Part shown: positions 20,334-56,846 of the stretch, in pieces
How positions within the stretch are numbered: position 1 is the first letter of the stretch
How the letters are laid out: each line of letters opens with the position of its first letter
Assembly (NCBI GenBank): GCA_963702565.1
Contig: CAVPDE010000011.1
Span: 40,918 to 104,917 of the forward strand
Direction of reading: 5' to 3'
From: an uncultured delta proteobacterium
GTDB taxonomy: Bacteria; Desulfobacterota; DSM-4660; Desulfatiglandales; HGW-15
Length of the DNA stretch: 64,000 bases
Translations under genes and position numbers: made by a program
The notes under the pieces: generated by a model
Databases searched by the model: none
What the model was told of the DNA's origin: nothing
The model's input: the letters and a program-made list of their open reading frames with translations, nothing else

Positions 20334-20340
20334 TCACTCC

Positions 20341-21674: not shown

Positions 21675-22523
21675 CTATCCCTTGCCAAGCACACAGTTGT
21701 CTATGAGCCGTGTCTTTCCCACTCTGACGGCAAGGGCCAACAAGGTTTCACCTCTCAAAGTATCCACGTCGTCCAGGGTAACAGGATCGCAGAGACTGAC
21801 GTAGTCGATCTGGGTGTAAGGGTGGCTTCGAACCAACTCCTCGATGGCTTCCTTGATCGTGGCCGACCGAGTCTCCCCCTTGCCCAGCATTTCCTGCGCA
21901 AGGTCCATGGATTTCTTGAGACAGAGGGCCGACTTTCTTTCTTCGCTGTTGAGGTAACTGTTGCGGGAGCTCATGGCCAGGCCGTCCGATTCCCGGTAGG
22001 TGGGCACCCCCAAGATTTGGAGGTCCATGTTCAGGTCCCTGACCATGCGGCTGATGACCGTGAGCTGCTGGTAATCCTTCTGGCCGAAGACAGCCAGGTG
22101 AGGCTTTGTGATGTTGAAGAGCTTGGCAACAATCGTGGTCACCCCGTCAAAATGGGTCGGTCTGGAGAGGCCGCAAAGATGCTTTGTCACCTTCTCGACA
22201 GACACTCTGCTTTCAAAACCCTCCGGGTACATCTGGTCAACGGCCGGAACAAAAGCGATGTCCACACCGACCTGCTGTGCTTTTGCCAGGTCTCCTTTCA
22301 GATCCCGGGGATACGCGGCCAGGTCTTCTTTGGGACCGAATTGCATGGGATTCACAAAGATACTGATGATCACGACGTCGCAGTGCTTTCTGGCGACTCT
22401 CATCAGTTCCAGGTGCCCTTCGTGGAAGAAGCCCATGGTGGGGACGAACCCGAGAACCTTTCCGGCCAGTCTCAGTTCTTCTGCCTTTTGCTGCATCAAC
22501 TCCGTTTTTTCAATAATCTCCAT
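21675..22523 (-). CDS. panC: Pantoate--beta-alanine ligase
   Basis: [15 protein letters not shown] and FGQKDYQQ. Confidence 0.95.
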
Positions 22524-34520: not shown

Positions 34521-35548
34521 GAACCCGTCTGAGCGGGTAGAATTTTTCGCTTTACCGCTGATTTCTTCTGGCTTTCCAGCTTGTCGTAAGCGTCTATGAT
34601 TTCCTGTACCAGGGGGTGGCGGACAACGTCTTCCCTGGAGAAATTGATAAATTTTATTCCTCCGATTCCATGCAGAATCTCCCTGGCTTCGATCAATCCC
34701 GACGTTTTCCCTTCGGGGAGGTCTGTCTGGGTCACATCCCCTGTGATCACCGCTTTTGAGCTGAATCCTAGTCGGGTGAGAAACATCTTCATTTGTTCCG
34801 TGGTCGCGTTCTGCGCCTCATCGAGAATCACGAAAGAGTCATTGAGGGTTCGGCCTCTCATGAAGGCCAGAGGAGCCACCTCGATGACTCCTTTCTGCAG
34901 GAGCCGGGAGGCGTCTTCAAAATCCATCATGTCGTGGAGAGCATCATAGAGAGGCCGGAGGTAGGGATTTACCTTCTCGTAGAGATCGCCGGGCAAAAAT
35001 CCCAGGTGTTCTCCTGCTTCGACGGCAGGTCTCGTGAGCACGATTCGCTTCATCTCTTTCTTGACCAGGGCTGCCACAGCCATAGCCATGGCAAGATAGG
35101 TCTTTCCTGTGCCGGCAGGCCCGATTCCAAAGACGATATCATAGGCCCGAATGCTGTCGATGTAGGCTTTCTGATTGATGCTCTTTGGCGCGATGACTGT
35201 TTTTCCTGATCCCACATAAACCCGGTCCATGAAGATTTTCTTGAGGCTGGCGGATTGATCGCTGCTCAGGATCCGGATCGCATATTCCACATCGTTCCGG
35301 TAAATGGGGTAATTCTGGTGAATGAGGTCGTAGAGCTGATTGAGGATATTCTCAGCCATCTCGATCTCCCAGTCCCCGCCTTCCAAAATCACCTCGGTAC
35401 CCCGAACGTTGGCGGAGAGCCCGATTTTGTTTTTCAGGGCCTGAAGGTGAGCATTTTGCTCGCCACAAAGTAGCCGGACCAGATCCGGATCAGGAAAGGA
35501 AAGTTTCTTCACCATCCTGGACGCCTGTTTCGCCGAATGACCTCCCAA
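34517..35548 (-). CDS. phoH: PhoH-family ATPase (YbeZ-like)
   Basis: GPAGTGKTYLAMA, ILDEAQN and an N-terminal KH-like region. An alternative start is ATG 35515. Confidence 0.9.
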   Translation of the reverse strand: MGGHSAKQASRMVKKLSFPDPDLVRLLCGEQNAHLQALKNKIGLSANVRGTEVILEGGDWEIEMAENILNQLYDLIHQNYPIYRNDVEYAIRILSSDQSASLKKIFMDRVYVGSGKTVIAPKSINQKAYIDSIRAYDIVFGIGPAGTGKTYLAMAMAVAALVKKEMKRIVLTRPAVEAGEHLGFLPGDLYEKVNPYLRPLYDALHDMMDFEDASRLLQKGVIEVAPLAFMRGRTLNDSFVILDEAQNATTEQMKMFLTRLGFSSKAVITGDVTQTDLPEGKTSGLIEAREILHGIGGIKFINFSREDVVRHPLVQEIIDAYDKLESQKKSAVKRKILPAQTGS

Positions 35549-36449: not shown

Positions 36450-39072
<2,623 letters not shown>

Positions 39073-39547: not shown

Positions 39548-40003
39548 ATGGCTTCGAAAACAAATCTCACCTCACAGATGGAAGATTATCTGGAAGCCAT
39601 CTACCATCTTTGCAGGGACGAGGGCGTGGCTCGAGTCAAAGCCATTGCTGATCGACTCGAAGTGACAACTCCGAGTGTTGTCGGCGCTATCAGAAAGCTC
39701 AAAGATCGCAATCTCGTGATTCAGGAGCCCTACGGTTATGTGCGGCTCACAATGGAAGGCGAGGAGATCGGAGGTGCGATCAGCCACAATCATGAAGTTT
39801 TGAGCGACTTTCTAAAGGAGATTCTGGGGTTGGACCATGAGACGGCTTCAGTGGATGCCTGCAAGATTGAACACGCCGTGAGCGCTGAAACCGTGAGGCG
39901 TCTGCGTGCGGTTGCGGAGTTTATCAGGCAAGAACCCCAAATCAACGTGGACTGGGAAAAGGAGTTCAAGCGCTTTTACCGCGAGTACCTGAGGAGGCTC
40001 TAG
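39548..40003 (+). CDS. DtxR/MntR-family metal-dependent transcriptional repressor
   Basis: EDYLEAIY, RVKAIADRLEVTTPSVVGAIRKLKDRNLV (winged HTH), and a dimerisation/metal-site region HNHEVLSDFL...CKIEH. Confidence 0.85.
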   Translation: MASKTNLTSQMEDYLEAIYHLCRDEGVARVKAIADRLEVTTPSVVGAIRKLKDRNLVIQEPYGYVRLTMEGEEIGGAISHNHEVLSDFLKEILGLDHETASVDACKIEHAVSAETVRRLRAVAEFIRQEPQINVDWEKEFKRFYREYLRRL

Positions 40004-40005
40004 AG

Positions 40006-40245
40006 TTGATCACGACGCTGGAAAAAGTCAAAGAAGGAATGTCCGCCGTGGTGAAGCAGGTCCATGGGGGTCACAAAATCCGTCAGAGGCTTGGCGGCCT
40101 GGGCATCCACGTAGACGACAGCCTGAAAGTTCTTCGCACGGGCTTTCTGGGAGGACCTGTCTTGATTGAGGTTCATGGGACTGAGGTTGGGATCGGTCAA
40201 GGCATGGCTGAGAAGATCGAAGTGGAAGTAATGGAAGAAGTATGA
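40006..40245 (+). CDS. feoA: Ferrous iron transport protein A
   Basis: 79 aa with the FeoA SH3-like pattern (L..V..G....V..V.GG...R.RL..LGI..G..L.V). TTG start with GAGGAGG 8 nt upstream. Confidence 0.85.
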   Translation: MITTLEKVKEGMSAVVKQVHGGHKIRQRLGGLGIHVDDSLKVLRTGFLGGPVLIEVHGTEVGIGQGMAEKIEVEVMEEV

Positions 40246-42164
40246 GAATCGCTCTTGTTGGACAACCGAATTGCGGAAAAAGCGCTCTCTTCAACAGCGT
40301 GGCCGGATACAAGACCATCGCCTCCAACTTTCCGGGCACCACAGTGGATTGTGTTATGAGCCCGGTCAAATTGAACGGGGACAGCTTCACGCTAGTCGAT
40401 TTGCCTGGGATTTATTCTGTTTCCTCTTCAGAAAGAGAGGAGATCTTGGCTCGCCGGTACCTCATCAAGGAGAGACCGGATTTGGTGATCAATATCCTGG
40501 ATGCGTCCGTGCTGTCCAGGAGCCTCGAACTGACCCTTGAGCTTCTGGAACTCAAGATTCCTCTGGTCATATGCCTGAATATGATCGACGAAGCAGAAAA
40601 GAAGGGCGTGGAGATCGACGTGGGCCACCTGTCCCAGGAGTTAGGAGTCCCTGTGATTCCTACCATCGCGATTCGAGGGCAAGGAGTTCCGGAGCTCTTC
40701 CAGTCAGCCCTGGAGACGGCGAAAAGAGGAACTGCAGGCACGATTCATTTTCTGTCCCTGGATGTGGAGCGCGTGATTTCAGAACTTGCGGATCTTCTTG
40801 GGGTTGCCACAGCAAGGAGGCTGGGAGTGCCCCAGAGGTTCCTGGCCATTAGGTTGCTTGAACAGGACGAGGAGTTCGAGCAAGCCGTGCGAGAAATCAA
40901 CCCCGGTATCATGGGCGACGTCGAACGTTTACGAAGCATGCTATCCGAGTGCCACGGAAGGCCTTCCGATATGGTGGTGTCGTCGGAACGGCATTCCCTG
41001 GCCATGAACCTTTTTGAGCACGTGGCCAAAGTCAAACCACGAGGTGCAAAGCCTTTCAGGGAGCAAATCGACAAATACCTCATGCATCCTTACCTGGGGT
41101 ATGTGTTACTTGGGGGGATTCTCTTCTCCTTTTTCTGGATGGTTTTCAGTCTTGGCAAGCACATCGAAGAACCGATCCTCTCCTTGTTTGAGCAATTCGC
41201 AGCTTACCTGGGTGTGCACCTCAGCAAGGAGTCCCTTCTGTTCACCGTCGTTAACGGTTTGATCCAGGGCTTTTCGGGGGGCATTGGAATCGTCTTGCCT
41301 TACCTGATCCCATTTCTCTTTGGACTTTCCCTGCTGGAAGACATTGGATACCTTCCAAGGGCCGCTTTCCTCATGGATTCCATTATGCACAGCATCGGGC
41401 TCCACGGGAAATCCATCATCCCCTTTGTGCTGAGCTACGGCTGCAATGTTCCTGCGATCATGGGCGTGAGAATCATGGAAAGGGCCAGGGACCGTTTTAT
41501 CACCGCCGTTCTCGTCACCCTCATTCCCTGTGCTGCGCGGACGACCGTCATCTTCGCCCTGGTGGCTTTTTATCTCGGACCTCTTAAGGCCCTCTTGCTT
41601 TATGTTCTCAACGTCGTGGTCATCGCAGCGTCAGGCAAGATCCTTTCACGCTTCATGCCCGAGGTCTCCCCGGGGATGATCCTCGAAATGCCGAGCTACA
41701 GGTTACCGCAGTTCTCAGCCGTGATGCGGAAGGTTTGGTTTCGCCTGCGGGAATTTATCCTGATCGCCTGGCCTATTCTGATTGCGGGAAGCGTCATCCT
41801 GAGCCTCCTGGAATATTTTCATCTTGCCGATCGCATCAACGGGATCCTCTCTATTTTCACCAGCGGGCTGCTGGGCCTTCCCTCAGCCGTAGGCATTACC
41901 CTTATTTTCGGCATCTTGAGAAAGGAGCTGGCCATCATCATGCTGGTCCAGGCTCTGGGGACAAGCAACTTCTCTTCCGCCATGACAGGGGAACAGATGA
42001 TGGTTTTCACGGTCTTCAGCCTCTTCTACATCCCCTGCCTTGCCACTCTGGGCATGCTGCGATCCACCATCGGGAACCGCGGCATGCTCTTCACCCTCTT
42101 TTTTACCACCGCCATCGGCACGCTGATGGCCCTGGCCATGCGAGTTCTTTACTGGGCCTACTGA
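40242..42164 (+). CDS. feoB: Ferrous iron transporter B
   Basis: An N-terminal G-domain (GQPNCGKSALFN, DLPG) followed by a polytopic membrane domain. ATGA overlap with feoA. Confidence 0.95.
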   Translation: MRIALVGQPNCGKSALFNSVAGYKTIASNFPGTTVDCVMSPVKLNGDSFTLVDLPGIYSVSSSEREEILARRYLIKERPDLVINILDASVLSRSLELTLELLELKIPLVICLNMIDEAEKKGVEIDVGHLSQELGVPVIPTIAIRGQGVPELFQSALETAKRGTAGTIHFLSLDVERVISELADLLGVATARRLGVPQRFLAIRLLEQDEEFEQAVREINPGIMGDVERLRSMLSECHGRPSDMVVSSERHSLAMNLFEHVAKVKPRGAKPFREQIDKYLMHPYLGYVLLGGILFSFFWMVFSLGKHIEEPILSLFEQFAAYLGVHLSKESLLFTVVNGLIQGFSGGIGIVLPYLIPFLFGLSLLEDIGYLPRAAFLMDSIMHSIGLHGKSIIPFVLSYGCNVPAIMGVRIMERARDRFITAVLVTLIPCAARTTVIFALVAFYLGPLKALLLYVLNVVVIAASGKILSRFMPEVSPGMILEMPSYRLPQFSAVMRKVWFRLREFILIAWPILIAGSVILSLLEYFHLADRINGILSIFTSGLLGLPSAVGITLIFGILRKELAIIMLVQALGTSNFSSAMTGEQMMVFTVFSLFYIPCLATLGMLRSTIGNRGMLFTLFFTTAIGTLMALAMRVLYWAY

Positions 42165-42189
42165 GAAAAGGCTGCCCAGGGGCGAATGA

Positions 42190-42695
42190 ATTTTGCCGAG
42201 CCACCTCAGAAATCCGGTGCACCTGGAATTTGCCGAGGTGAACGTGAATGAATTGCTGAAACGAAGCCTCATGTTGAGCCAGCACAAAATGACACTTCAG
42301 AACATCCAGGCGAAGACAGAGCTGGATTCCAAGATCCCCTGATCCAAGGGGACTTCAATCAGCTGCAGCAGGCCGTCATCAACCTGCTATTCAACGCTAT
42401 TGACGCCATGCCGGACGGAGGGACCCTTGTCCTTGCCAGCGCTTTCAACCCCAAGCTGAACGTCGTGGAAATCAGAATCAGCGACACGGGCTGCGGCATT
42501 TCCAAGGAAAGCCTGCCTCACATTTTTGAGCCTTTTTTTACCACCAAGACCGAGGGCAAGGGACTGGGCTTGGGCCTTTCCACGGTCTTCGGGATCGTAG
42601 ACAGGCACAAGGGCACCATTGAGGTGAAAAGTGAGATCGCTCAAGGCGCAGCGTTTATCACCAGGGTGCCCGTGGGTCCCAAAGGTCCGGTCTAA
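42190..42695 (+). pseudogene. Histidine-kinase 3' remnant (catalytic ATPase domain only, plus a frameshift in a C-run)
   Basis: One frame reads FAEVNVNELLKRSLMLSQHKMTLQNIQAKTELDSKIP then a stop. The next frame reads LIQGDFNQLQQAVINLLFNAIDAMPDGG...DTGCGI...FFTTK...GLGLGLS (N, G1, F and G2 boxes). No HisKA or sensor region remains. It starts right after the feoB stop. Confidence 0.75.
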
Positions 42696-42949
42696 AAGGG
42701 CCTTTTCCCGCAGCAGCTCCCCGGGCCGCTGCAACCGGCGGCCTGGCCAGGGGATGATCCGCAGCAGGCCGTATCACCGGGACCCGGCATGCTGTTTCGC
42801 GCCGTACCCGATAAGGAAGATGGCGCCGAAAGAAGTCTCTTCACGTTGCGGCTTCCGCAGGCCCGGCACTCCGGCTGGTCAGAGGAACTGGCTACAAGGA
42901 TTTCGCTCACCTTTCCGCAATCAATGCACAGAAAATCAAAAAGAGGCAT
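42692..42949 (-). CDS. FmdB-family zinc-ribbon protein with a Cys/Gly-rich tail
   Basis: MPLFDFLCIDCG...CRACGS (CxxC...CxxC), with the tail ACCGSSPGQAAGCSGPGSCCG. Confidence 0.8.
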   Translation of the reverse strand: MPLFDFLCIDCGKVSEILVASSSDQPECRACGSRNVKRLLSAPSSLSGTARNSMPGPGDTACCGSSPGQAAGCSGPGSCCGKRPF

Positions 42950-42960
42950 CTCCTCCTCCT

Positions 42961-43434
42961 TTATGCCGCTTTGTCCGGCCGTGCTTCCTCGTACTCCTTG
43001 ATGGCCTTTTCCAGGGTTTTGACAGCTAGCCGGATGCAGTGCTGCTTCTGATCCGGAATTTGAACCAGTCGCCGAAAGACGTCCCGGTCCTTGACTTCCA
43101 AGGCCTCGGAAAGAGTCTTCCCCCTGACGAGATCGGCAAGGGCCATGGCAGCGGAAACAGCGCCCGGGCAGCCAAGGACTTGGTATTTTGCGTCGGCAAT
43201 TCGGCCCTTATCCACTTTGATGAAGCACTTCATGGTGTCTCCGCAGGGGCCGGTTAGTTCCGTGACATGATTCGCCCCTTTCAGGGGCCCAAGGTTTGGC
43301 TTTTTCAGAAAATAGTTAATGGCTTCCTCCGCGTATCCGGAAGAAGAAAGCATTTCACGAATGCTGGCAATCTCATTCTGATTAGAAAGTGTCTCCTGCT
43401 CCATGGTCGTATCCCTGTCTAGTGATGCGCGCAT
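42961..43434 (-). CDS. IscU/NifU-N-terminal-like iron-sulfur cluster scaffold protein
   Basis: GPCGDTM, LGCPGAVSAAMALA and QKQHCIRLAV (three conserved Cys). The likely start is ATG 43404. Confidence 0.75.
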   Translation of the reverse strand: MRASLDRDTTMEQETLSNQNEIASIREMLSSSGYAEEAINYFLKKPNLGPLKGANHVTELTGPCGDTMKCFIKVDKGRIADAKYQVLGCPGAVSAAMALADLVRGKTLSEALEVKDRDVFRRLVQIPDQKQHCIRLAVKTLEKAIKEYEEARPDKAA

Positions 43435-43802
43435 CCGCCCTGGCCTTGGTGTCCAGCACAGGTCATATTCACGGAAAACTCGGGGAGCTTACCGGATTTC
43501 ATGTATTCGAGATTCTGTTTCACGCTTCCCTCCACTGCCCTGAAGACGCGGACCCCTTGAGCCTGAAGCCTCATGAGGGCGCCGCCCCCTATCCCGCCCA
43601 CAACAATCGCATCCACAGGGTTGCCGGCGAGGGCCTTCATGGGCTGACACTGACCATGCGCATGGTGGGCGTCTCTGTTGCCGATGGTTTCGAACTCTCC
43701 GCTCGTGCTGTCGAGAATCACAAAAGAAGGAGCTGAGCCGAAATGTCCATAGACCTGGCTTTCAAGTCCTTGATCCACTTGAACCGGAAAAGCAATCTTC
43801 AT
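43419..43802 (-). CDS. NifX/NifB-C-terminal-like (dinitrogenase FeMo-cofactor-binding domain family) protein
   Basis: MKIAFPV...HFG.AP.F...D and VDAIVVGGIGGGA. The start was moved to ATG 43802. Confidence 0.75.
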   Translation of the reverse strand: MKIAFPVQVDQGLESQVYGHFGSAPSFVILDSTSGEFETIGNRDAHHAHGQCQPMKALAGNPVDAIVVGGIGGGALMRLQAQGVRVFRAVEGSVKQNLEYMKSGKLPEFSVNMTCAGHQGQGGCAHH

Positions 43803-43878
43803 ATACAATTCCCTCCGTAGCAATTTTCAGATTATTAAACTAAAAAAACCATCCCCTCCTGTCAAGAGAGGGGTGCCC

Positions 43879-44382
43879 TTAATCATCTCTTCTGAAGCGA
43901 TCATCGGACTTCTTCGCTTTGGCCATTCCTCGAACCTGTTCCAGCCAGCCGATTCGACAGTTCTCCTGATGGTCGAATTCAGGGACATAGGGTTTGATGT
44001 CCAGCAGAGGCGTACCGTCGAGGATGTCCACGTTCTCAATGTCCAGAGTGTATCCTCTGACTTGGACAAGCCGGACGATGGAGAGCCCGATCGGATTGGG
44101 CCGCTTTGGGGCTCGTGTGGCAAAGACGCCTCTTGGCTCGGAATCAAGGAAAGGAGTAACAATAAGCTTGTACCCGCGGCTCTCATGAAAGTGGTAAAGA
44201 AGAATGAGGTGGGAGAAACCGTCAAGATCCTTCAGCCCATCAGCAAATTCCTGAAAGAGTTCCACGGTGCCGCGGATTCCTGCTGCGCCCGAAGGCTGGA
44301 TGGGCATGTTCTCCAATTCTTTAAAGGGCGTGCGAATGATACCGATGGAACGATAGACAATGCCTTCAATTTTCTTTTCCAT
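43879..44382 (-). CDS. trmO: TsaA/YaeB-family SAM-dependent methyltransferase (TrmO-like)
   Basis: IGIIRTPF, FSHLILLYHFH, RPNPIGLS and DGTPLLDIKPY. Confidence 0.75.
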   Translation of the reverse strand: MEKKIEGIVYRSIGIIRTPFKELENMPIQPSGAAGIRGTVELFQEFADGLKDLDGFSHLILLYHFHESRGYKLIVTPFLDSEPRGVFATRAPKRPNPIGLSIVRLVQVRGYTLDIENVDILDGTPLLDIKPYVPEFDHQENCRIGWLEQVRGMAKAKKSDDRFRRDD

Positions 44383-44400
44383 GATCGCTTGATCCTTGTT

Positions 44401-44871
44401 TCACGAGCGAAGCGTCGCAGTCAGCCTCAGAGCATGAAGCAGGAGATCCAGGGCTTCCAGGATGCTGCGGGTCGCAATGTCCGCCGCCATGAGCGTTTCA
44501 ACCGTGGCTCCCTCCTCCTGAATCACGGCGATCCCCAGAACCGTCTCCTTGAGCATCAGGGCATCGTTGCGGCCATTCCCCACGCTGACGGTTTTCTGCA
44601 ATCCCAGCTGCCGGACATAGTCTGCCTTGGCTCGGGTCTGATTTTCTTTCCCGATGACCACAACCTCACACGGGATGCCGGTCATTTCTTTCTGAACACT
44701 TCCGAAAGTGTCCGCCGTGAGGATGTGGATCGACAAACTCTTTGAAAGCTTTTCTAACCGTTCCCTCACCCCGTTAATCAGACGACCGTCACAGGCAATG
44801 GTCCCGTTGTAGTCAAGCACCAGATGGGAGAGAAAAAGCGTCTTGTAGCCTGGGATCGCTTCTTCCAGCAT
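44401..44871 (-). CDS. HAD-superfamily hydrolase (soluble P-type-ATPase-like)
   Basis: LVLDYNGT (DxxGT-like), and VGNGRNDALM (GDGxND-like). Confidence 0.7.
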   Translation of the reverse strand: MLEEAIPGYKTLFLSHLVLDYNGTIACDGRLINGVRERLEKLSKSLSIHILTADTFGSVQKEMTGIPCEVVVIGKENQTRAKADYVRQLGLQKTVSVGNGRNDALMLKETVLGIAVIQEEGATVETLMAADIATRSILEALDLLLHALRLTATLRS

Positions 44872-44917
44872 AGGAGCACGTCTCCTGAAGTGATTTGGCC
44901 TTGGAGCGTATCAGTCC

Positions 44918-45859
44918 TTATTGCTGCACGCAAGGTGTGACTCCAATTTCGGTTTTCTCCTCTGAATCATCCTTTTTCATCGGAGTGACATCCTTCGCGG
45001 TTTTTTGAATGATGGTTTTCACAACGTTCTCAAATTCCTTGTTAAAGGGATTGCTTTTTCCCATCAGGTCGTCGAGTCTGCCCAGATCCCCTCTTTGAAC
45101 CACCTCCGGCTCAATGGGCAGGCTTCCGAGGAGAGTCAGGTTTTCTTTTTCCGCTGTGAGCTGCCCTCCCCGGCTCTTGAACAGATCGATCCGCTTTCCG
45201 CAGTGAGGGCACTCGAGGCCGCTCATGTTCTCCACGAGGCCAAGGATCTCCATTTTTACCAAACGGCAGAAGTTGATGGATTTCCTGACGTCCGCAAGAG
45301 AGATTTCCTGCGGCGTGGTGACGATCACTGCCTTGGCATCAGGGATGGTCTGGGCTACCGTCAGCGGTTCGTCTCCGGTGCCCGGAGGAGAGTCAATGAT
45401 CAGATAGTCGAGATCCGACCAGTCAATGTCGGATATGAACTGGCGGATCACGCCGATCTTGATCGGGCCTCTCCAGATGGTGGCCAGGTCTTTATTCTCG
45501 CCCATAAGGGATTCGATTGAAATCACCTCTAGGTTACTCAGAAACTGGACAGGAACAGCCTTGCCTTGGCGCCCCGAAGGTTGGAGACCTCCTTTGAGGC
45601 CGAGTAGTCTCGGAATGCTGGGACCATGGAGATCCACATCCATGAGTCCGACTTTGTACCCCTTGGTTGCCAGAGAAACAGCGAGGCAGGCGGCGATGCT
45701 GCTTTTCCCCACTCCCCCTTTTCCACTCATGACAAGGATTTTATTTTTGATATGCGCAAGACGCTCTTTAATCTCCTGATCCTGCATGGAGTGCTTGTCT
45801 TCTTGTTCTTTGTGCATCGGAAAATGATCTTTTTGTCCCATACTGCTATAACCCTCCAA
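44918..45859 (-). CDS. Mrp/NBP35/ApbC-family Fe-S cluster carrier ATPase
   Basis: SGKGGVGKSS deviant Walker A, and CPHCG in the C-terminal half. Confidence 0.9.
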   Translation of the reverse strand: MEGYSSMGQKDHFPMHKEQEDKHSMQDQEIKERLAHIKNKILVMSGKGGVGKSSIAACLAVSLATKGYKVGLMDVDLHGPSIPRLLGLKGGLQPSGRQGKAVPVQFLSNLEVISIESLMGENKDLATIWRGPIKIGVIRQFISDIDWSDLDYLIIDSPPGTGDEPLTVAQTIPDAKAVIVTTPQEISLADVRKSINFCRLVKMEILGLVENMSGLECPHCGKRIDLFKSRGGQLTAEKENLTLLGSLPIEPEVVQRGDLGRLDDLMGKSNPFNKEFENVVKTIIQKTAKDVTPMKKDDSEEKTEIGVTPCVQQ

Positions 45860-46276
45860 TCATGAATCTTTATTGAATTTTGTTTTTTCCCCAAAGGGTT
45901 TCTTAGAATCCATCGGCTTCAGTCGATCATGGAATTCGGCCGTGTTCGAACCGGGCATCAGGTATTTTGAATGGGCCAGTGTTCCATCCAGGTAGGCGTT
46001 CAGCACCGCTTCCGGCTGACCTGAAATGCCCTGGATGAGCTCGATTCCGGAAGCTTTCAGCAAATCGGAGAAATGGCGGGTCACTGCGCCGCAGATCAGC
46101 GTATCGACGCAGAGATCCTGAATTCTCAGACACCGCTGGGACAAGTCCCTCTCATCCAAATAGATCTCGAAGCGGGACGTCGGGCTCTTTTCATTCAACT
46201 CAACGACCATGAGCCTCGATGCCGTGTCCAAGACGGGCGACACTTTGTTTTCCCAGACCGGTATGGCTATTTTCAT
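45860..46276 (-). CDS. NifX/NifB-C-terminal-like domain protein (second copy)
   Basis: MKIAIPVWENKVSPVLD... and ICGAV. Its stop abuts the Mrp start. Confidence 0.7.
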   Translation of the reverse strand: MKIAIPVWENKVSPVLDTASRLMVVELNEKSPTSRFEIYLDERDLSQRCLRIQDLCVDTLICGAVTRHFSDLLKASGIELIQGISGQPEAVLNAYLDGTLAHSKYLMPGSNTAEFHDRLKPMDSKKPFGEKTKFNKDS

Positions 46277-46324
46277 TGGAAAGCACCCCTTGAGTTTCTT
46301 TTCCTGGCTTTGCCCTCTCTATAC

Positions 46325-46681
46325 CTAGTGGCCTTCCACGTTTGCTTCCGTGGCTTCACCGTATTTCCCGTTCATGAAGGCGGCTATGGCATCACCGATT
46401 TTGCCTTTCACACCTACAACGACCTTGACCCCTGCGGCCTTAAGCACTCTAAAGGCCTTGGGGCCGCAGTTTCCCGTGAGGACCACATCGGGCTTGTGAA
46501 CCAGGACATTTTGAGCCGACTGGATTCCTGCACCCTGGGCGAGGTCCAAGCTTTGACTGTTCGCGGCCACATCGAAGCTCATGGTTTCGGTATCCACGAC
46601 AAGAAACTTGGGCGCCCTTCCAAGCCTGGGATCGATCTGAGCATTCAGATCATCGCCCTCGGTGGTGACTGCAATTTTCAT
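46325..46681 (-). CDS. NifX/NifB-C-terminal-like domain protein (third copy)
   Basis: MKIAVTTEGDDLNAQIDPRLGRAPKFLVVD and VVLTGNCGPKAF. The start was moved to ATG 46681. Confidence 0.75.
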   Translation of the reverse strand: MKIAVTTEGDDLNAQIDPRLGRAPKFLVVDTETMSFDVAANSQSLDLAQGAGIQSAQNVLVHKPDVVLTGNCGPKAFRVLKAAGVKVVVGVKGKIGDAIAAFMNGKYGEATEANVEGH

Positions 46682-46750
46682 CTCTCTTGTCTGTCCTCCT
46701 TTGACCATACTCGCGCGCATTCCACTTGCACCATCGCTATCCTTTGCTAG

Positions 46751-46766
46751 AGCACCTTTCGTGCCA
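46751..46766 (-). promoter_or_regulatory. Sigma-54 (-24/-12) promoter candidate TGGCACG-AAAG-GTGCT
   Basis: The minus strand reads CTGGCACGAAAGGTGCTC, with GG and GC at the canonical 10-nt spacing, about 70 nt upstream of ATG 46681. Confidence 0.7.
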
Positions 46767-46872
46767 GTTTAGGAAGAAATGTGCCTAGGCTGGCAACAAG
46801 CTGAAATTTCATTTGAAATTGTTTATGTGTTGCAAAGGAGGAAAGGAGACGTGGTTTGGGATACTTCAATTA

Positions 46873-46899
46873 TGCAATACGGGAAACTCCATTATTGCA
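46873..46899. promoter_or_regulatory. Possible enhancer (UAS) palindrome TGCAATA-N13-TATTGCA
   Basis: Perfect 7-bp inverted arms lie about 110-150 bp upstream (minus-strand sense) of the -24/-12 element. Confidence 0.35.
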
Positions 46900-46952
46900 G
46901 AAGTGCAGTGTGTTATGGGGCTGTTTTCTTTCGATCACCGCCAAGCCCTAAC

Positions 46953-48299
46953 TCATGACAGAACCTGTTTTTCGGGAGGCTCGATGTGGAGGCGTTTCAT
47001 TTTGCGCCACAGGGTCGTCGGGTGGATGCCCATCTCCGCAGCCGTTGCGGCTCTGTTCCACTGATTGCGCTTGAGGACCTCTCGAATGTAACTACTTTCC
47101 ATCTCACCCAAGGAGGACGGCCTGGTTTCCGGGGGTCGGTTCATCCTGCTCTCCTCCGAGTTCCTGAAGAAATCCGGGAGGTGTTCAATACCGATCGTTC
47201 CGTTCTTGCAAACGACCGTGGCGTACTCGATGATGTTTTCCAGCTCCCGGACGTTTCCTGGAAAATCATGGGACATGAGGATGGGGAATGCTTCGGGGGA
47301 GAGGCCCTGGATCTCCTTGCCGCTCAGACGGCAGAATTTCCGTATGAAGTGTTCCACCAGGATGGGGATGTCTTCTCTCCTGTCGCGCAGAGGAGGAAGA
47401 ACGAGCTTGACCACGTTGATGCGATAGTAGAGGTCCTGTCTGAACTTTCCTTCTTCCACCAGGCTCTGGAGGTTTTTGTTTGTAGCGGCAACGATCCGGA
47501 CATCCGTTTTCAGAAACTTCGTGCTTCCAAGGGGCTCATAGGTCTTATCCTGAAGCACTCGAAGGAGGCGAACCTGCAGGGCAGGAGAAATGTCTCCGAT
47601 TTCATCGAGAAAGAGGGTCCCTCCATTGGCCACGGCTAGCCGACCGGGCTTGTCTTTGAAGGCCGTGCTGTGGGCGCCTTTTTCGTAGCCAAAGAGCTCC
47701 GATTCCAAAAGGGTGTCAGGCAGAGACCCGCAGTTGATCGTGATTAGAGGCCCTGTCTTCCTCGGGCTCAGCGCGTGAATCGCCTTGGCGAACAGCTCCT
47801 TGCCCGTGCCGCTTTCGCCCTCCAACAGAATCGTGGCGTCGCTTTCTGAAATCTGCTCCAGGATCCCGAAAAGCCTGCGCATTTCTTTGTTCTTGCTGAT
47901 GATGTCCTGGAAAGAGTGACGCTTTGTAAGCTCTTTGCGAAGTTCTTCGACCACGCTCAAGTCTCGAAAGGTTTCCACCCCCCCGATGACGGAATCCTGT
48001 TCATCTCTTAGCAGGGCCGTGGAAATGCTGACAGGGACTCGTTCTCCGTGAAGGTTGACGATGTAAATGGATTGATTCAGAACGGGGTGGCCTGTAGCCA
48101 TGGTGTGTTTCAGAGAGCAGCGATTTTCGCAAATACTGGCTCTGAACACTTCCCAGCATTGACGGCCGATGGCTTCTTCTTTCTTAATCCCTGTAATTTT
48201 TTCTGCAGAGCGGTTGAAAGAAGTGATCTTCAAATTCGAGTCCACCGTAAAAACGCCATCTGCGATGCTGTCGAGGATGATCTGCGTCCGGTTTTCCAC
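46953..48299 (-). CDS. PAS-domain sigma-54-dependent (NtrC/Fis-family) transcriptional activator with an atypical GAFTGA loop
   Basis: It has a PAS domain (SFNRSAEKITG) carrying CWEVFRASICENRCS, an AAA+ domain (GESGTGKE, RIVAATN, R-finger RREDI) and a C-terminal Fis-type HTH (AAAEMGIHPTTLWRKMK). The GAFTGA position reads GAHSTA. Confidence 0.85.
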   Translation of the reverse strand: MENRTQIILDSIADGVFTVDSNLKITSFNRSAEKITGIKKEEAIGRQCWEVFRASICENRCSLKHTMATGHPVLNQSIYIVNLHGERVPVSISTALLRDEQDSVIGGVETFRDLSVVEELRKELTKRHSFQDIISKNKEMRRLFGILEQISESDATILLEGESGTGKELFAKAIHALSPRKTGPLITINCGSLPDTLLESELFGYEKGAHSTAFKDKPGRLAVANGGTLFLDEIGDISPALQVRLLRVLQDKTYEPLGSTKFLKTDVRIVAATNKNLQSLVEEGKFRQDLYYRINVVKLVLPPLRDRREDIPILVEHFIRKFCRLSGKEIQGLSPEAFPILMSHDFPGNVRELENIIEYATVVCKNGTIGIEHLPDFFRNSEESRMNRPPETRPSSLGEMESSYIREVLKRNQWNRAATAAEMGIHPTTLWRKMKRLHIEPPEKQVLS

Positions 48300-48318
48300 A
48301 TCCTATCCTCTTTAGGCC

Positions 48319-49626
48319 CTATTCTCCCTCATCATCTTCTTCGTCAAAGACGATCTCGTCCCTCTCGTATTGGGCATCCCGCAGGGCATGGGCTTTTTCC
48401 ACTTCCTCTTCGCTCCAGGGCTCCACAATGAGCGAATCAGCCACTAGCTCCCACAAGTACTTGGTCTCAATGTCCAAGCCGAATTCTTTGGTCAGGCCTT
48501 TCATGATCTGGTCACGGCAATTGTGGCAGGGGGTAATGACCAACTTTGCTCCTGTGTCCCTGATCTGTTGCGCCTTAACCCTTCCGTAGTAAATTCTTTC
48601 GTCCGAGTAAGGCATGGCCCATGCGCCGCCGCCGGCGCCGCAGCAGTAGTTGTTCATCCGGTTGGGGTACATTTCCACATAATGCTCGCAGCACTGCTGG
48701 GTGATCCACCGGGGCTCTTCAAAGTAGCCATGGCCGAAAGCCTTCTGGCCTTTCCTTCCGTAATTGCACGGGTCATGCACGGTCGTGAGTTCTTCGTGGA
48801 TGGTTTTGTCCAGTTTGATTCTTCCCGTCTCGATGTATTCTTTCAGGAGATCGTGGACCGATACGACCTTGTATTTCTTGAAAACTTCGGGAAACCAGTT
48901 TTGCAGACCAAGCCTGGTCGCGTAGTAAGCGTGCCCTCACTCGGGCAAAAGGAGCGTCTTACACTCCAGCCTCTCCATGTGCTCGACGATACGACCCACG
49001 AGCGTCTTCATGGACTCATCATCTCCTGAGAAGAGCCCCCAATTGACTCCTTCCCAGTTGTACGAAGGTACGGTCCAGTCCTCCTTGGCCGCATAAAAGA
49101 TGCGCCACCAGAACTTCATGTCATCCGGCTCCCCAAAGGGTTCTTTGGAGTTGATTGTGACGAGGACGTTGGCTCCCTTTTTATCCACAGGCACATAGAA
49201 CCCAGGGAAACCATCCGCTTCGAGCTCTTTACCGAGGTCAGCGAGGAGGAAGAGAAAATCCGGTTTGGGAATGCCGAGGTTGTTCCCTCTTTGAAGGTCC
49301 ATGACCACGCCCTTGTGGATGGGGCCCGGGACCTTGTCTCTTTCGCGAAGGGTTCTGGCTCTTCGCATCATCTTGAGGATTTCCACTCCCTGAGGGCACG
49401 CGTATTCGCAACGGCCGCAGAGGGTGCAGATCCAGGGGAACCTCGAATCAATGAGTTCCTGGTCTAATCCCAGCGCAGCCATGCGGACAGCCTTTCTGGG
49501 GTCCATGTTGTCAACGCCTGTGACTGGGCAACCGCTCGCGCAGGTGCCGCAGGTGAAACAGACATCCGCCCACTCAGGGGACACTCTCAGTTTGCTCTCT
49601 TTTCGGTTAATGACCAAAGGTTCCAT
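48319..49626 (-). CDS. HdrD/GlpC-like Fe-S oxidoreductase (2x[4Fe-4S] + CCG domain), selenocysteine-containing (in-frame TGA 48937-48939)
   Basis: Track ORFs 48937-49626 and 48319-48780 are in the same frame and are separated only by a TGA plus 52 open codons. The read-through sequence is ...LLLPE-U-GHAYYATRLG...DPCNYG...NYCCGAGGG...PCHNC (C-x40-CC-x37-C-x2-C). The hairpin GACCA-GGCT-TGGTC lies 18 nt after the TGA. Confidence 0.75.
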
Positions 49627-49723
49627 TCAATTTCTCCTTTACGTATTAACATCCTGGGCCTGCAAACACTCTACGCCTTCATTCCGCCGTGTCTCTTGAG
49701 GGCGTGGAGCAAAAACCAGCATT

Positions 49724-50113
49724 TCAACGGCTCAGGAATTCCTTGATCTTCGCGAGAAGTTTTTCTTTGTCCACGGGTTTGTCAAAAAAAGCGTCAGGGC
49801 TGAAGTACTCCTGGTCTCTCTCTTTTTCATATCGGACCCCCAATTCGTCCGCCATGCCCGAAATCCCGATGATTGGCGTCTTCTTGAGATCCGGGTCTGT
49901 TTTGATCCGCTTGCACACTTCAAAGCCCGAATACAGGGTCTCCATCATCACGTCGAGCAGAATGAGGTCCGGATGCTCTTTTTGAGCCAATTCCACGCCC
50001 TTTTTCCCGTCTTGTGCCGTCAGCGTGCCGAACCCATTTCGTTTCAAGAACGTTTCAGTGGTGAAAAGGTAATCGGGGTTGTCATCGATGATCAATATCT
50101 TCTTGGATCCCAT
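49724..50113 (-). CDS. Stand-alone response-regulator receiver protein
   Basis: KKILIIDDNPD, ILLDVMM and PIIGISGM (CheY-like fold signature). Confidence 0.9.
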   Translation of the reverse strand: MGSKKILIIDDNPDYLFTTETFLKRNGFGTLTAQDGKKGVELAQKEHPDLILLDVMMETLYSGFEVCKRIKTDPDLKKTPIIGISGMADELGVRYEKERDQEYFSPDAFFDKPVDKEKLLAKIKEFLSR

Positions 50114-53215: not shown

Positions 53216-53658
53216 CAAACCACCTCAGCTCTTCTCTTAACAAGATAAGTTGCCTGACCGGTCTCCTTGACCGCCTTGATGACTTCGGTGGCAACCTCCA
53301 CGAACTTGGTTGCTTCGGCAGAGGAAATCCACGAAAAGTGCAGTCTTCCCGGTTCCAGCCCCACATGCTCGATCAGATTCTTGAACAGTGCGAACTTGCG
53401 TCTTGCGAAGTAATTACCTTCCAGGTAATGGCAGTCGCCGGGGTGTCAGCCGGAAACCCAAACACCGTCGGCGCCGTGTCGGAACGCGGCGAGGATGAAT
53501 TTGGGGCTCACCCGGGCAGAGCAGGGCACCCGGATAACCCGGATATTGGACGGGTACTGGAAGCGGCTGACCCCTGCCAGGTCTGCCGCTCCGTAGCTGC
53601 ACCAGTTGCACAAGAATGCGGTTATCTTAGGCTGCCAGTCGTTCATAGCTCTCTCCAA
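53215..53658 (-). CDS. mvhD: MvhD/FlxD-like [2Fe-2S] electron-transfer subunit, selenocysteine-containing (in-frame TGA 53446-53448)
   Basis: Track ORF 53446-53658 ends ...[12 protein letters not shown]. The same frame stays open for 76 more codons: [51 protein letters not shown]...; G-U-HPGDCHY is the Cys/Sec position of MvhD. The hairpin ATTACC-TGGAA-GGTAAT lies about 20 nt after the TGA. Confidence 0.8.
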
Positions 53659-53813: not shown

Positions 53814-56800
53814 TTACATTTCGTTAATCATCGCCATGATCTGCCCTTCCTCGAATCCCTTGAGGTTGAGCGCTCCTGAGCGGCAGGAAGCCACGCAAAG
53901 ACCGCAGCCTTTGCAGAGCACCGGGTTGACCTCCGCCTTACCCGCGAAAGGCCCCTTCTGAATAAAAGAGGGCGCCGAGTAGGGGCAAATCTCCACACAG
54001 ACCCCGCAGCTGCTGCAGACGGCAGGGGTCGTGTAGGCGACCATGCCGCTCACAGAGATAGTCTTTCTGGCCAGCAGAGTGACCGCTCTGGAGGCGGCTG
54101 CCTGGGCGTGGGCCACCGACTCATCGATGGGCTTTGGATAGTGCGCCATACCGCAAAGGAAGACCCCGTCCGTGGCAAACTGGGATGGGCCCAGCTTGGC
54201 GTGAGCCTCCACAAAGAACCCGTCCTCGCTCACGGGGACCTTGAAGAACTGGGCAAGCTTTTCGTCCTTGTAGGGAACGATGGCCGAGGCCAGGGCAACC
54301 AAACCCGCCTTGATCAGGATGGGCCGCTGGAGCACATGATCCATCACCTCGATCTCAAGTCCCTCTGTACCGGCGGAGACTTTCGGTTTCTGAGAAACAG
54401 AGAACCGGATGAAGAGAATCCCCGCTTCTCGCGCCTTCCTGTAAAGGAGTTCCCGCTCGCCGTAGGTTCGGATGTCCCGGTTGAGAATGTAAACATCCAT
54501 GGCTGGGTTCAGCTCTTTGAGGTGGAGGGCGCTTTCAATGGAGTGGGTGCAGCAGACTCTCGAACAATAGGGTCTTTGCGGTTCGCGCGAGCCCACGCAC
54601 TGGATGAACACGGCGGTTTGAACCTTCTTGAGCGATGGGTCGTGATCGATGAATCTGCGGTCCAACTCCTGGTGAGTCACCACCAGGGGATTTTTCCCAT
54701 AAAGGTACTCCTCGGGCTTGTACTCACAGCATCCCGTGGCCAGCACGGCGATTCCGTGGTCAATGGTTCCCTGGAGGGTACTGGACTGAAACGTGGACTT
54801 GAAGTTTCCGACGAACCCTTCGACCTGGGTCAGCTCGGCTCCGAGGTGGACGCGGATGTTTTTGTCACCCTGGACCGACTGCACAAGGTCCCCCAGGTTT
54901 TTCTGGATATCTTCTCCCTGCCACGTCCTGTAAAGGTTTAGGGCCTGACCGCCGAGCACGCGGGATTTTTCGATGATGTCCACCTCATAGCCCTGGTCGC
55001 TCAAGGTCTTTGCCGCCACCATCCCGGAGATGCCGCCACCGACCACGAGCGCCCGCTGGTTGATATCCAGGACAGCCTCAGGGAGGGATTCCATGAGAGC
55101 CACCTTGGCCACGGCCATGCGCACGAGGTCTTTGGCTTTGTTCGTGGCCTCCTGAGGATTGTCTTTGTGGACCCAGGAGTCCTGGTTGCGGATGTTGGTC
55201 ATCTCGAAGAGGTACTTGTTCAGCCCGGCGTTGACAAGGGTTTCCTGAAAGAGAGGCTCGTGGGTCTTGGGCGTGCAGGCCGCCACCACGATCCGGTTGA
55301 GGGCGTTCGCCCTGATCACCTGGGCCATGGTGTCCTGAGTGTCCTGCGAGCAGGAGTAGAGGTTGTCCGCTACGTACTCGACGTAGGGAAGCTTCTTCGC
55401 ATAGTCGCGCACAGCCGGTACATCCACCACGCCGCCGATGTTGATGCCGCAATTGCAGACAAAGACGCCGATGCGAGGCCGCTCCCCCCGAATGTCTATC
55501 TGCTCGGGCACCTCTTTCGCTTTGGTCAGCGTATTGCGCGCGCTACTCAAAAGGCCTCCTGCTTGGGCAGCCGCCGAACTCGCTTCGATCACGGACTGGG
55601 GAATGTCCTTGGGTCCCTGGAAAGCCCCGCACACGTAAATGCCTTCCCTGGAGGTAGCCACTGGAGCAAAAGAACCGGTGCGGCAGAATTGCGATTCGGT
55701 GAGGTCGATGTCGAGCTTGTCGGCCAATTCCACGACCTCCGGCGAGGTCTCCATCCCTACGGAAAGGACGACCATGTCAAAAGCCTCTTGGCGCAATTCA
55801 CCGTTTTCAGTGGCATACTTGACGCTGAGATCTTCGGACTGCGAGACGGCCTCCACGGAGTGAACGCGGGACCGGATGAAGCGAACGCCGTGTTTTTCCC
55901 GGGCCGCGTCATAGTACCTTTCGAACTCCTTTCCGTGGGTCCTCATGTCCATGTAGAAGATGGCGCAATCGAGATCAGATCCTGAATGCTCCTTGGCGAT
56001 GACCGCCTCTTTGATGGCATACATGCAACAGACGGAAGAACAATAGGGATGGTCACACTGATGCATGTCCCTGGACCCGACGCACTGGAGCCACGCGATT
56101 TTCTTGGGCTCCTTGTGATCGGACATGCGGGCGAGATGCCCCAGGGTAGGACCGGACGCTGAAAGGATCCTCTCGAACTCCATGGAGGTGACCACGTTCG
56201 GAAGCTTGGAGTAGCTGTAAGTATCGTACTTGGAGGGGTCAAAGGGCTGAAAGCCCGGTGCAAGGATGATGGCCCCTACTTGTACCGTCGTCCTTTTTTC
56301 CTGGTCATCAAATTTGATAGCTCCTGAGGAACAGAATTTCTCGCAAGCTTTGCACTTACCTTTTTCGAAGAAAATGCAGTTATCTTTGTCGATGGCATAT
56401 TTCAGAGGCACGGCCTGGGCGTAAGGGACATAAATGGCTTTCCGCTTGATCAAGCCTTCATTGTAATCGTCTTCAACCTTTTTGGGACATTTCTCAGCGC
56501 AGGTACCGCAACCAATACACTTCTCAGGGTCCACGTATCGCGGATGCTGCAGAATGTCCACTTGTAGATTTCCGGGCTCTCCCCTGACATTTAGAACTTC
56601 TGAAAGCGTAAGCAATTCGATGTTTAGGTGCCGGCCGACCTCGACCAGTTTGGGGGAGATAATTCACATCGCACAATCATTAGTGGGAAACGTCTTATCC
56701 AGTTGGGCCATGACCCCGCCTACAGACGGGGACTTCTCAACGAGGTAGACGTGGTAGCCGGAATCTGCCAGGTCAAGCGAGGCTTGCATCCCTGCAATAC

Positions 56801-56846
56801 CACCGCCGACGACCATTACTGATCCTGTGGGTTTATGGGACATCAT
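53814..56846 (-). CDS. hdrA: Large HdrA-like flavoprotein (HdrL-type, two FAD/NAD dinucleotide-binding regions), selenocysteine-containing (in-frame TGA 56664-56666)
   Basis: Track ORFs 56664-56846 and 53814-56615 are in the same frame. The read-through sequence is VVGGGIAGMQASL...KTFPTNDCAM-U-IISPKLVEVGRHLNIELLTLSEV, the known Cys/Sec site of HdrA. There is a second GGGISGMVAA motif mid-protein, several CxxCxxCxxxCP ferredoxin motifs, and about 1010 aa in total. Confidence 0.85.

Follow-up and report, generated by a model that had tools for sequence, protein, structure and literature searches.

Which system is encoded by a compact set of metallocluster genes that lies behind a sigma-54-type promoter in an uncultured delta proteobacterium? 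The set occupies positions 42692-48299 on the minus strand of a 64,000-nt stretch of DNA (here called the window, i.e. the whole stretch analysed: positions 40,918 to 104,917 of contig CAVPDE010000011.1, assembly GCA_963702565.1, order Desulfatiglandales), and comprises nine co-oriented open reading frames (ORFs): eight cluster genes (42692-46720; g1 to g8) and the gene of an adjacent activator (46953-48299). The original prediction, made from the sequence alone, was of a NifX-like cluster of unknown role. Based on homologies, gene order, the conservation of the promoter and of an upstream activating sequence (UAS), deletions and purifying selection, we consider with good confidence that the locus is an orp (orange protein, ORP) operon, from a lineage of Desulfobacterota, and that it represents the type of system known from the orp cluster of Desulfovibrio vulgaris Hildenborough (DvH). 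The cluster is a reduced ORP variant and not a new pathway; the label "unknown role" overlooked a described ORP cluster with a regulator (OrpR) and a carrier (MrpORP), and the nearest structure of the supposedly NifX-like g1 is that of an orange protein (2WFB).

The orp gene cluster of DvH was reportedly described by Fievet et al. in 2011. It extends over DVU2103-DVU2109, as two operons with sigma-54 promoters, IHF and a cognate activator, OrpR (PMC6345978, PMC8359166, PMC3897727). MrpORP (DVU2109) is the Fe-S carrier of the DvH ORP complex; Orp3 and Orp4 are its sole demonstrated clients, and the OrpR regulon in DvH consists of the orp operons only. As to the physiological role of ORP, a connection with cell division has been suggested for D. 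vulgaris.

The window shares with the DvH cluster an orange protein homologue, other proteins with DiNase domains and a carrier of the Mrp/NBP35 type; a sigma-54 promoter preceded by a palindrome, with a candidate element at the IHF position; a cognate activator with PAS, AAA+ and helix-turn-helix (HTH) domains and a cysteine triad; and restriction to anaerobes. It differs in having one operon rather than two divergent ones, in lacking Orp3/Orp4 and in an Mrp protein that has no DiNase domain, and it has additional genes for a HAD-like protein, a short YaeB, an IscU-type scaffold and an FmdB zinc ribbon.

Gene content of the cluster

The eight cluster genes are all on the minus strand and are separated by only 11-76 nt, and are therefore arranged like an operon, in agreement with the original description of eight packed genes on one strand. 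The genes, and that of the activator, are as follows.

46953-48299, minus strand: OrpR-type enhancer-binding protein (EBP) with PAS, AAA+ sigma-54 interaction and Fis-type HTH domains (Pfam PAS_9, Sigma54_activat, HTH_8)
46325-46681, minus strand: g1, orange protein (ORP/Orp8) homologue, a single DiNase (Nitro_FeMo-Co) domain (Pfam, 69 bits)
45860-46276, minus strand: g2, divergent DiNase-fold protein (DiN2), conserved directly upstream of mrp (Pfam, 22.5 bits)
44918-45841, minus strand: g3, Mrp/NBP35 Fe-S carrier ATPase, corresponding to the MrpORP P-loop domain without the C-terminal DiNase domain (ParA/NUBPL, 300 bits)
44401-44871, minus strand: g4, small HAD-superfamily protein, similar to P-type ATPase P-domains or SerB (DxxGT, GNGxND; weak matches)
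43879-44382, minus strand: g5, archaeal-type short YaeB, consisting of the TrmO_N beta-barrel S-adenosylmethionine (SAM)-binding domain only (TrmO_N, PF01980, 147 bits)
43419-43802, minus strand: g6, DiNase-domain protein (DiN3) with a His/Cys-rich loop and tail (Nitro_FeMo-Co, 78 bits)
42961-43404, minus strand: g7, U-type (IscU/NifU-N) Fe-S scaffold (NifU_N, 90 bits)
42692-42949, minus strand: g8, FmdB-family CxxC...CxxC zinc ribbon with a Cys/Gly-rich tail (Zn_ribbon_8, 44 bits; TIGR02605)

Based on orthologue alignments, g1 probably starts at the ATG at 46681 (MKIAV, with AGGAGG ahead of it) and not at 46720, and the likely starts of mrp, g6 and g7 are at 45841, 43802 and 43404. The family assignments that had been proposed for the eight proteins are upheld by Pfam and NCBIfam, with two caveats: g2 taken alone is below threshold, and the HAD assignment of g4 is weak.

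The top match of g1 among six PDB matches is the ORP of D. gigas (2WFB; E 5.6e-21, 78 bits). As a single sequence g2 scores 22.5 bits, below the Pfam gathering score of 26.3; a profile of its family (20 sequences) matches the DiNase-fold PDB entries 1O13 and 1T3V (E 1.7e-10), and DiN2 was found in 24 related loci. All three small DiNase proteins (g1, g2 and g6) match the C-terminal part of the NCBIfam MrpORP model. The first part of the same model is covered by g3 (383.5 bits, model positions 2-262 of 365), for which it is the best NCBIfam match: g3 shares with MrpORP (DVU2109 and Dde_3202) the P-loop domain, the deviant Walker A motif (GKGGVGKS) and a CxxC motif (CPHC), but it has a His-rich N-terminus without the four N-terminal cysteines, and it lacks the C-terminal DiNase domain, which is present in the orthologues of three related loci (L085, L084 and L001). 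For g4, the matches to HAD families have E-values of 0.009 (Pfam), 4e-6 (P-type ATPase P-domain) and 1e-4 (SerB structures); its orthologues are present in five other ORP clusters (L084, L085, L101, L113 and L115). The ligands of the scaffold g7 are three Cys, an Asp and a His, with the motifs GPCGD, GCPG and HC read in the translation. A near-identical ORF of g8 is found in L085, and FmdB proteins are also encoded in L001, L043 and L094.

The DiNase domain is the Pfam domain (Nitro_FeMo-Co) that is also found in NifX, NafY and the C-terminal domain of NifB. A nitrogenase-type reading of the locus was considered and rejected: unlike NifX and NafY, the window proteins have no nitrogenase or nifB/nifEN context, and the structure nearest to g1 is that of an orange protein. 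As the original prediction had stated, there are no nitrogenase genes (nifHDK, nifB or nifEN) among the ~40 window ORFs that were scanned against Pfam, and none was found in related loci. Nor did the scanned window ORFs include a cysteine desulfurase partner for g7.

A hairpin with a T-run behind it (43853-43871, minus strand) lies in the 76-nt gap between the YaeB and DiN3 genes and is a possible internal attenuator. Terminator-like hairpins in the cluster region are not above chance (nine, as compared with 8.1 expected), and we therefore do not claim an internal terminator.

Promoter and upstream activating sequence

Three elements were identified between the activator gene and g1.

46751-46766, minus strand: sigma-54 -24/-12 promoter, TGGCACGAAAGGTGCT (predicted transcription start ~46740, 5' untranslated region ~59 nt)
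46794-46806, minus strand: IHF-like site, TTTCAGCTTGTTG, in the interval between UAS and promoter (two mismatches to WATCARNNNNTTR)
46863-46909, no strand: UAS, an imperfect dyad with 22-nt arms at 46863-46884 and 46888-46909 (arms 77% complementary)

The promoter (the reverse complement of 46751-46766) has one mismatch to TGGCAC-N5-TTGCW. The motif alone is not above chance, as the window has three matches with at most one mismatch and 2.1 are expected, although for the 271-nt intergenic region, counting the correct strand alone, the expectation is only ~0.005 matches (our own arithmetic). We accept it as a sigma-54 promoter because of its position and its conservation across relatives, not because of the motif match. 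In an alignment of 33 distinct upstream sequences (mean identity to the window ~62%, range 36-89%), column conservation is 0.98 for TGGCAC and 0.95 for GTGCT, as compared with 0.57 for the rest of the region, and TGGCAC ranks first of 272 six-nt windows. The -24/-12 motif is found at about -85 from the ORP start codon in most of the ~40 related loci with enough upstream sequence (within a few nt of -85 in nearly all close relatives), and also in the diverged loci L089, L090, L115, L124 and L134. The sigma-54 promoter that had been predicted is thus borne out by sequence and conservation. A consensus scan of the coding strand found no sigma-70-like promoter, and a search for a riboswitch (e.g. 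of the Moco type) gave no Rfam match of any kind, at E up to 1, in the 5' untranslated region or elsewhere in 42000-50000.

The core of the UAS is TGCAATA-N13-TATTGCA at 46873-46899 (TGCAAT-N15-ATTGCA in its hexamer form), and its centre is ~146 nt upstream of the predicted transcription start; the orp promoters of DvH have their EBP sites at -131 and -88. The palindrome had been proposed to be an activator site, and its conservation bears this out: its arms (conservation 0.95 and 0.96, spacer 0.69) stand out from the background in the same alignment, ATTGCA and TGCAAT rank fourth and seventh of the six-nt windows, and arms of the form TGCAAY and ATTGCA are found at about -218 and -197 from the ORP start codon in most of the ~40 loci. 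In the distant locus L134, the interval from the OrpR-type gene to the ORP genes contains a perfect TGGCAC-N5-TTGCT as well as a dyad, GTTGCA-N14-TGCAAC. The IHF-like patch shows a local conservation peak at TTTCA...TG (mean 0.72), and we interpret it as a putative IHF site; functional IHF sites lie at an analogous position, between EBP site and promoter, in the DvH orp promoters.

Related loci, missing segments and selection

Close relatives of the locus (related loci are designated here by L and a number) were supplied by metagenome contigs; in species-representative genomes, the best match to the TrmO-like protein g5 is 71% identical. One close relative is L085, whose DNA is syntenic and collinear with the window and whose proteins are 80-92% identical at the amino acid level (92% for g6). 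L085 encodes ORP, an ORP paralogue, DiN2, a fused MrpORP of 414 aa, two CbiA+2xFer4 (Orp3/4-like) proteins, a metallo-beta-lactamase-like protein, and then HAD, YaeB, DiN3, IscU and FmdB, in this order. Its MrpORP carries the published CxHFGHC, TPPPHxPG and CDH motifs, and residues 1-298 of this protein are 88% identical to g3. The full canonical order is also found in L084, L001 and ~20 further metagenome loci retrieved with g1. Conservation of the gene neighbourhood had been named beforehand as a check of the original prediction, and the order DiN1-DiN2-Mrp...[HAD]-YaeB-DiN3-IscU-FmdB does recur in relatives.

Comparison with L085 by blastn defines two segments that are absent from the window: window positions 46293-44947 correspond to L085 2016-3362, and 44871-42691 to L085 7048-9233. 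The first absent segment (L085 1440-2015) contains the ORP/DiNase paralogue, and the second (L085 3363-7047) contains orp3, orp4, the lactamase-like gene and the part of the MrpORP gene that encodes its DiNase domain. The junction of the second is the following.

44872-44946, minus strand: deletion junction, ~3.7 kb absent as compared with L085 (blastn)

The window Mrp protein ends nine residues beyond this breakpoint. A reduced cluster is also found in the separate lineage of L090 (EBP, ORP, DiN2, unfused Mrp, a DiNase protein and IscU; no Orp3/4), and we therefore regard reduced ORP forms as natural variants. The ratios of nonsynonymous to synonymous substitution rates (dN/dS) between the window and L085 are 0.03-0.16 for all seven genes compared (e.g. 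0.105 for g4, 0.12 for g5, 0.047 for g6 and 0.033 for g7), i.e. the genes are under purifying selection, which argues against decay.

The adjacent, probable activator

The activator shares with OrpR (DVU2106) the domain order, a PAS motif of the form C-x-[E/D]-x6-C-x3-C and the placement beside ORP genes. Its Sigma54_activat domain (222 bits) is intact apart from the L1 loop, and its sensor motif is C48-W-E50-x6-C57-x3-C61 (C-x-E-x6-C-x3-C), with a Cys/Glu spacing identical to that of C52, E54, C61 and C65 of DvH OrpR; the motif is found in 117 out of the 120 closest homologues. In OrpR a [4Fe-4S] redox sensor resides in the PAS domain, C52, C61 and C65 are required and the acidic residue 54 is conserved; the C-x-E-x6-C-x3-C spacing has been reported to be fully conserved in OrpR homologues and to be required for redox control. 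Orthology to DVU2106 was assessed by proxy, through identity to PAS-Cys EBPs that are encoded next to ORP genes in distant lineages: over the full length, the window protein is 62% identical to that of L136, 56% to that of L134 and 51% to that of L081. The L1 loops of these three are GAFTDA (two, including L134; the same loop as in DvH OrpR) and GAFTGA (one). The OrpR-type HTH (GIHxTTLWRK) is conserved. The gene runs in the same direction as the operon and lies ahead of it, whereas in DvH it lies between the divergent operons.

A short YaeB protein

The gene g5 had been described as a TsaA/TrmO-family methyltransferase. The TrmO_N domain stands: the protein (167 aa) scores 134 bits against TIGR00104 (cut-off 93), its best structure match is AF_0241 (E 4e-28), and, judged by eye, the SAM-contact residues Q, R, D and K are apparently present. 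The label of a tRNA methyltransferase was an over-call, because g5 has no DPRxxY domain; the DPRxxY motif is absent from g5 and from all 90 homologues collected. With TrmO (Escherichia coli YaeB, the tRNA m6t6A37 methyltransferase) g5 thus shares only the N-terminal beta-barrel SAM-binding domain, and it groups instead with archaeal-type, AF_0241-like proteins. For the formation of m6t6A, E. coli TrmO depends on its C-terminal DPRxxY domain, which is missing from archaeal-type YaeB proteins; no m6t6A has been detected in archaea, and another substrate was suggested by the authors (PMC4132733).

YaeB genes are linked to ORP genes for ~10 out of 80 species-representative homologues, so the association is recurrent but facultative. 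Two loci give an impression of its variety: L137 (ORP 48% identical) has two YaeB-like ORFs (13755-14288 and 18088-18471) interleaved with Orp3-like and Mrp genes, and an archaeal metagenome-assembled genome (L051, Baldrarchaeum) has the order YaeB-DiNase-Mrp at 9683-12019. Our literature search found no link between TrmO/YaeB and NifX-type or Fe-S proteins, and a short YaeB without DPRxxY that recurs in ORP clusters of several phyla looks new. We read g5, at about even odds, as an accessory, ORP-associated SAM-binding protein, and give less weight to the alternative that it is a passenger (see below). SAH hydrolase and SAM synthetase genes are adjacent to each other at 18993-21694 (minus strand), ~22 kb from the cluster; no evidence was found that ties this pair to the YaeB-like protein.

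Genomic surroundings

The activator gene is preceded by two listed ORFs that form one HdrD-like frame of 435 codons (48319-49626, minus strand; Fer4_8 and CCG domains), with an in-frame TGA at 48937-48939 (context ...LLLPE*GHAYY) that is a selenocysteine candidate. As this frame ends 19 nt before the start of the EBP gene, the two genes may be co-transcribed. A FlpD/MvhD-like ORF lies at 53257-53646, and an HdrA-like protein is encoded at 53814-56819 (minus strand): its tblastn match to the HdrA-like protein of L090 starts at 56819, ~200 nt before the ORF start at 56615, which implies one or more in-frame stops, possibly selenocysteine codons.

On the other side, a histidine kinase remnant (42408-42695, plus strand; the last 95 residues, HATPase_c) is convergent with the cluster and overlaps the stop of the FmdB gene; at this position L001 and L084 have a full gene of 524-588 aa (RR-PAS-HisKA-HATPase_c). 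A DtxR-type iron-dependent repressor, FeoA and FeoB are encoded at 39548-42164 (plus strand), between the ORP cluster and a PhoH gene (34547-35542); the corresponding interval contains two genes in L090 and ZnuA and Fur genes in L085, so that the DtxR-FeoAB block looks like an insertion of metal-uptake genes. Two overlapping ORFs (36877-38382 and 38300-39046, plus strand) both match the peroxidase family (KatG-like), which suggests a frameshifted gene or a sequencing error. Since synteny with L085 and L090 (PhoH, 7TMR-HD etc.) resumes at 35542, it is likely that the region in between (feoAB, the dtxR-like and KatG-like genes, the truncated histidine kinase) reflects an insertion or rearrangement. 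The genes that flank the cluster are different in relatives: a pyridine-nucleotide disulphide reductase in L085, AhpC in L001, an MTHFR-Hdr cluster in L089 and L090, and PIN toxins or other EBPs in others; CooT or FmdE-zinc-finger genes were also observed near the clusters of relatives.

Evidence against the assignment and alternative explanations

Several observations weigh against the assignment to ORP. The likeness to DVU2103-DVU2109 was judged indirectly, from published descriptions, family models and structures. Orp3 and Orp4 (MinD-like ATPases with two [4Fe-4S] ferredoxin motifs) have no counterpart: tblastn with the L085 proteins against the whole 64-kb window gave only trivial motif matches, although orp3 and orp4 could lie elsewhere in the genome, outside the window. 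The score of g3 is below the MrpORP equivalog cut-off of 450 bits, which is explained by its missing second (DiNase) domain. The dyad TGCAAT-N15-ATTGCA differs from the DvH OrpR site, GGGCGYRTTTTGCGCCC. The L1 loop of the activator (residues ~207-212, 47660-47680, by alignment to ZraR) is GAHSTA in place of GAFTGA, and GAFTDA in DvH OrpR; region I of sigma-54 is contacted by the Phe and Thr of GAFTGA, and in PspF open-complex formation was abolished when these positions were changed. Finally, the gene directly upstream of the promoter cassette varies: it is of OrpR type in the window, L090 and L126, but in at least seven distinct related contigs another EBP of 510 aa, with a canonical GAFTGA, lies directly upstream of the same promoter/UAS cassette (L099, L103, L106, L108-L112, L119, L122, L123 and L125; e.g. 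L106:3589-5121), and in 26 related loci the gene at this place encodes no EBP. The 510-aa protein has a different HTH (...NPSTLRYRMNQLG) and an N-terminal domain without a Pfam match.

The GAHSTA loop is kept in 110 out of the 120 closest clusters (at 90% identity; P0121-P0240), so it is under selection. None of the 150 best family representatives (50% clusters) has it; in nearly all of these the third residue of the loop is still Phe or Tyr, and a few have degenerate loops (e.g. GADATG in P0247). GAHSTA was not mentioned as a sigma-54 loop variant in the literature we searched, and the clade of GAHSTA activators looks new.

Because the upstream gene varies even among close relatives, we retain as an alternative that the operon depends on sigma-54, but that another EBP, such as the 510-aa GAFTGA protein, binds the dyad, while the GAHSTA protein is a repressor, a modulator or a mixed-hexamer partner, or has other targets. 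Such an arrangement would account for a loop that replaces the sigma-54-contacting Phe-Thr and that none of the 150 representatives shares, for the 510-aa protein beside the same cassette in the loci named above, and for the proximity of the activator gene to the HdrD-like gene, to whose transcription unit it may belong. Yet the window has no orthologue of the 510-aa protein, the GAHSTA loop is retained in most of the closest clusters, the OrpR-type HTH is conserved, and TTGCA/TGCAA dyads also accompany a GAFTDA member (L134). PAS-Cys EBPs of OrpR type adjoin ORP genes in the window, L090, L126, L134-L137, L081 and, according to the literature, DvH, and since this adjacency across phyla would otherwise be hard to explain, we favor an OrpR-type EBP as the ORP regulator and regard control by another EBP as unlikely. 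The earlier claim that the adjacent activator drives the operon is therefore likely in so far as the protein is of OrpR type and ORP-adjacent elsewhere; in view of the GAHSTA loop and of the other EBP in relatives it is not secure.

Three other explanations concern the genes themselves. The cluster had been suggested to be a generic NifX/NafY-type line that assembles metalloclusters and delivers them to the Fe-S and selenocysteine redox enzymes next door. The metallocluster theme holds (DiNase, Mrp and IscU-type components are all present), and the neighbors do include the HdrD-like ORF with its in-frame TGA, the HdrA-like protein and AsrA/B-like Fe-S proteins; we found no evidence for delivery to these neighbors, and it is very unlikely, as the flanks differ among relatives that share the cluster and its promoter. 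The Hdr-like genes of the window are only 40-44% identical to those of L090 and are thus paralogues, not partners kept with the cluster; the OrpR regulon of DvH and the clients shown for MrpORP are confined to the ORP system, and no nif genes were found among the window ORFs scanned. A somewhat stronger case, although still one we think doubtful, can be made that the TrmO-like gene, and perhaps the HAD gene too, is a passenger, i.e. a housekeeping RNA or protein methyltransferase without a role in ORP: when 80 species-representative homologues (61-71% identical) were examined, ~70 of them lay more than 10 kb from any DiNase, Mrp or Orp3/4 gene, and the genes right beside the homologues span 169 unrelated Pfam families; the TrmO of L087 (86% identical) is encoded beside FmdE and an MFS transporter, with L085-like synteny downstream but without ORP genes; and the ORP clusters of L113 and L090 have no TrmO-like gene. 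Against this, the gene is found in or beside ORP genes in varied arrangements (window, L001, L084-L086, L094, L137, L043, L060, L081 and the archaeal L051) and in different phyla, three out of 142 immediate neighbors are Nitro_FeMo-Co as compared with ~0.2 expected (our own estimate), the YaeB gene is 18 nt from the HAD gene with a dN/dS of 0.12, and the domain on which tRNA methylation by E. coli TrmO depends is missing, so that even a role on tRNA would be hypothetical. That the window cluster is a decaying, non-functional remnant is highly improbable. Gone from it are orp3, orp4, one DiNase paralogue and one MrpORP domain, and there are signs of local rearrangement (the truncated histidine kinase gene at 42408-42695, the split katG at 36877-39046 and the inserted feoAB), but all eight ORFs are intact, dN/dS is low for the seven genes compared with L085, the promoter, UAS and ribosome-binding site are intact and match the consensus of the relatives, and L090, of an independent lineage, also has a reduced form with an unfused Mrp and no Orp3/4.

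Proposed mechanism

The assignment to ORP suggests a scheme in which redox sensing, DNA binding by the EBP, cluster transfer and the physiological role are taken from the Desulfovibrio literature. The OrpR-type EBP would sense low redox potential through a [4Fe-4S] cluster on C48, C57 and C61 of its PAS domain, with E50, and would bind the TGCAAT-N15-ATTGCA dyad ~146 nt upstream of the transcription start; probably aided by an IHF bend, it would then activate sigma-54 RNA polymerase at TGGCAC-N5-GTGCT. A single transcript would yield the orange protein g1, the DiNase-fold cluster binders g2 and g6, the Mrp/NBP35 ATPase, which may carry a bridging [4Fe-4S] cluster on CPHC, and the U-type scaffold g7, along with the accessory HAD-like protein, the short YaeB SAM-binding protein and the FmdB zinc ribbon. 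Under strictly anaerobic conditions these products may build, hold and pass on Fe-S or heterometal-sulfide clusters among themselves. The present copy is a reduced one: the MinD-ferredoxin ATPases Orp3/Orp4 are gone from it, as are one of the ORP paralogues and the DiNase domain that MrpORP has elsewhere.

Implications for the ORP system

No part of this overturns current understanding. New here are the single operon, the truncated MrpORP, the absence of Orp3/4, the HAD-YaeB-DiN3-IscU-FmdB module, the different UAS and the GAHSTA activator clade. This clade, above a strongly conserved -24/-12 promoter, is a well-populated natural experiment on the sigma-54 contact loop, and the short YaeB SAM-binding protein (of a large archaeal-type family) and the small HAD-like protein are candidate new components of the system. 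Taken further, YaeB might act not on tRNA but as a SAM-dependent ORP component together with the HAD-like, DiN3, IscU-type and FmdB proteins, methylating a cluster sulfide or ligand or modifying an ORP protein, and, separately, the GAHSTA activator might work with His in place of Phe. We consider this a long shot; if true, YaeB would make a step of heterometal/Fe-S cluster chemistry dependent on SAM in a system other than nitrogenase, and the GAHSTA clade would be a sigma-54 activator that works with His instead of the near-invariant Phe.

ORP is one of few anaerobe-specific metallocluster systems with a dedicated redox-sensing regulator, and the window and its relatives indicate that it is widespread in uncultured Desulfobacterota and beyond. 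The system is modular, as it exists without Orp3/Orp4 and without the fused domain of MrpORP, and because such a minimal form exists, the candidates for its essential core are narrowed to ORP, DiN2, Mrp, a further DiNase protein and a U-type scaffold.

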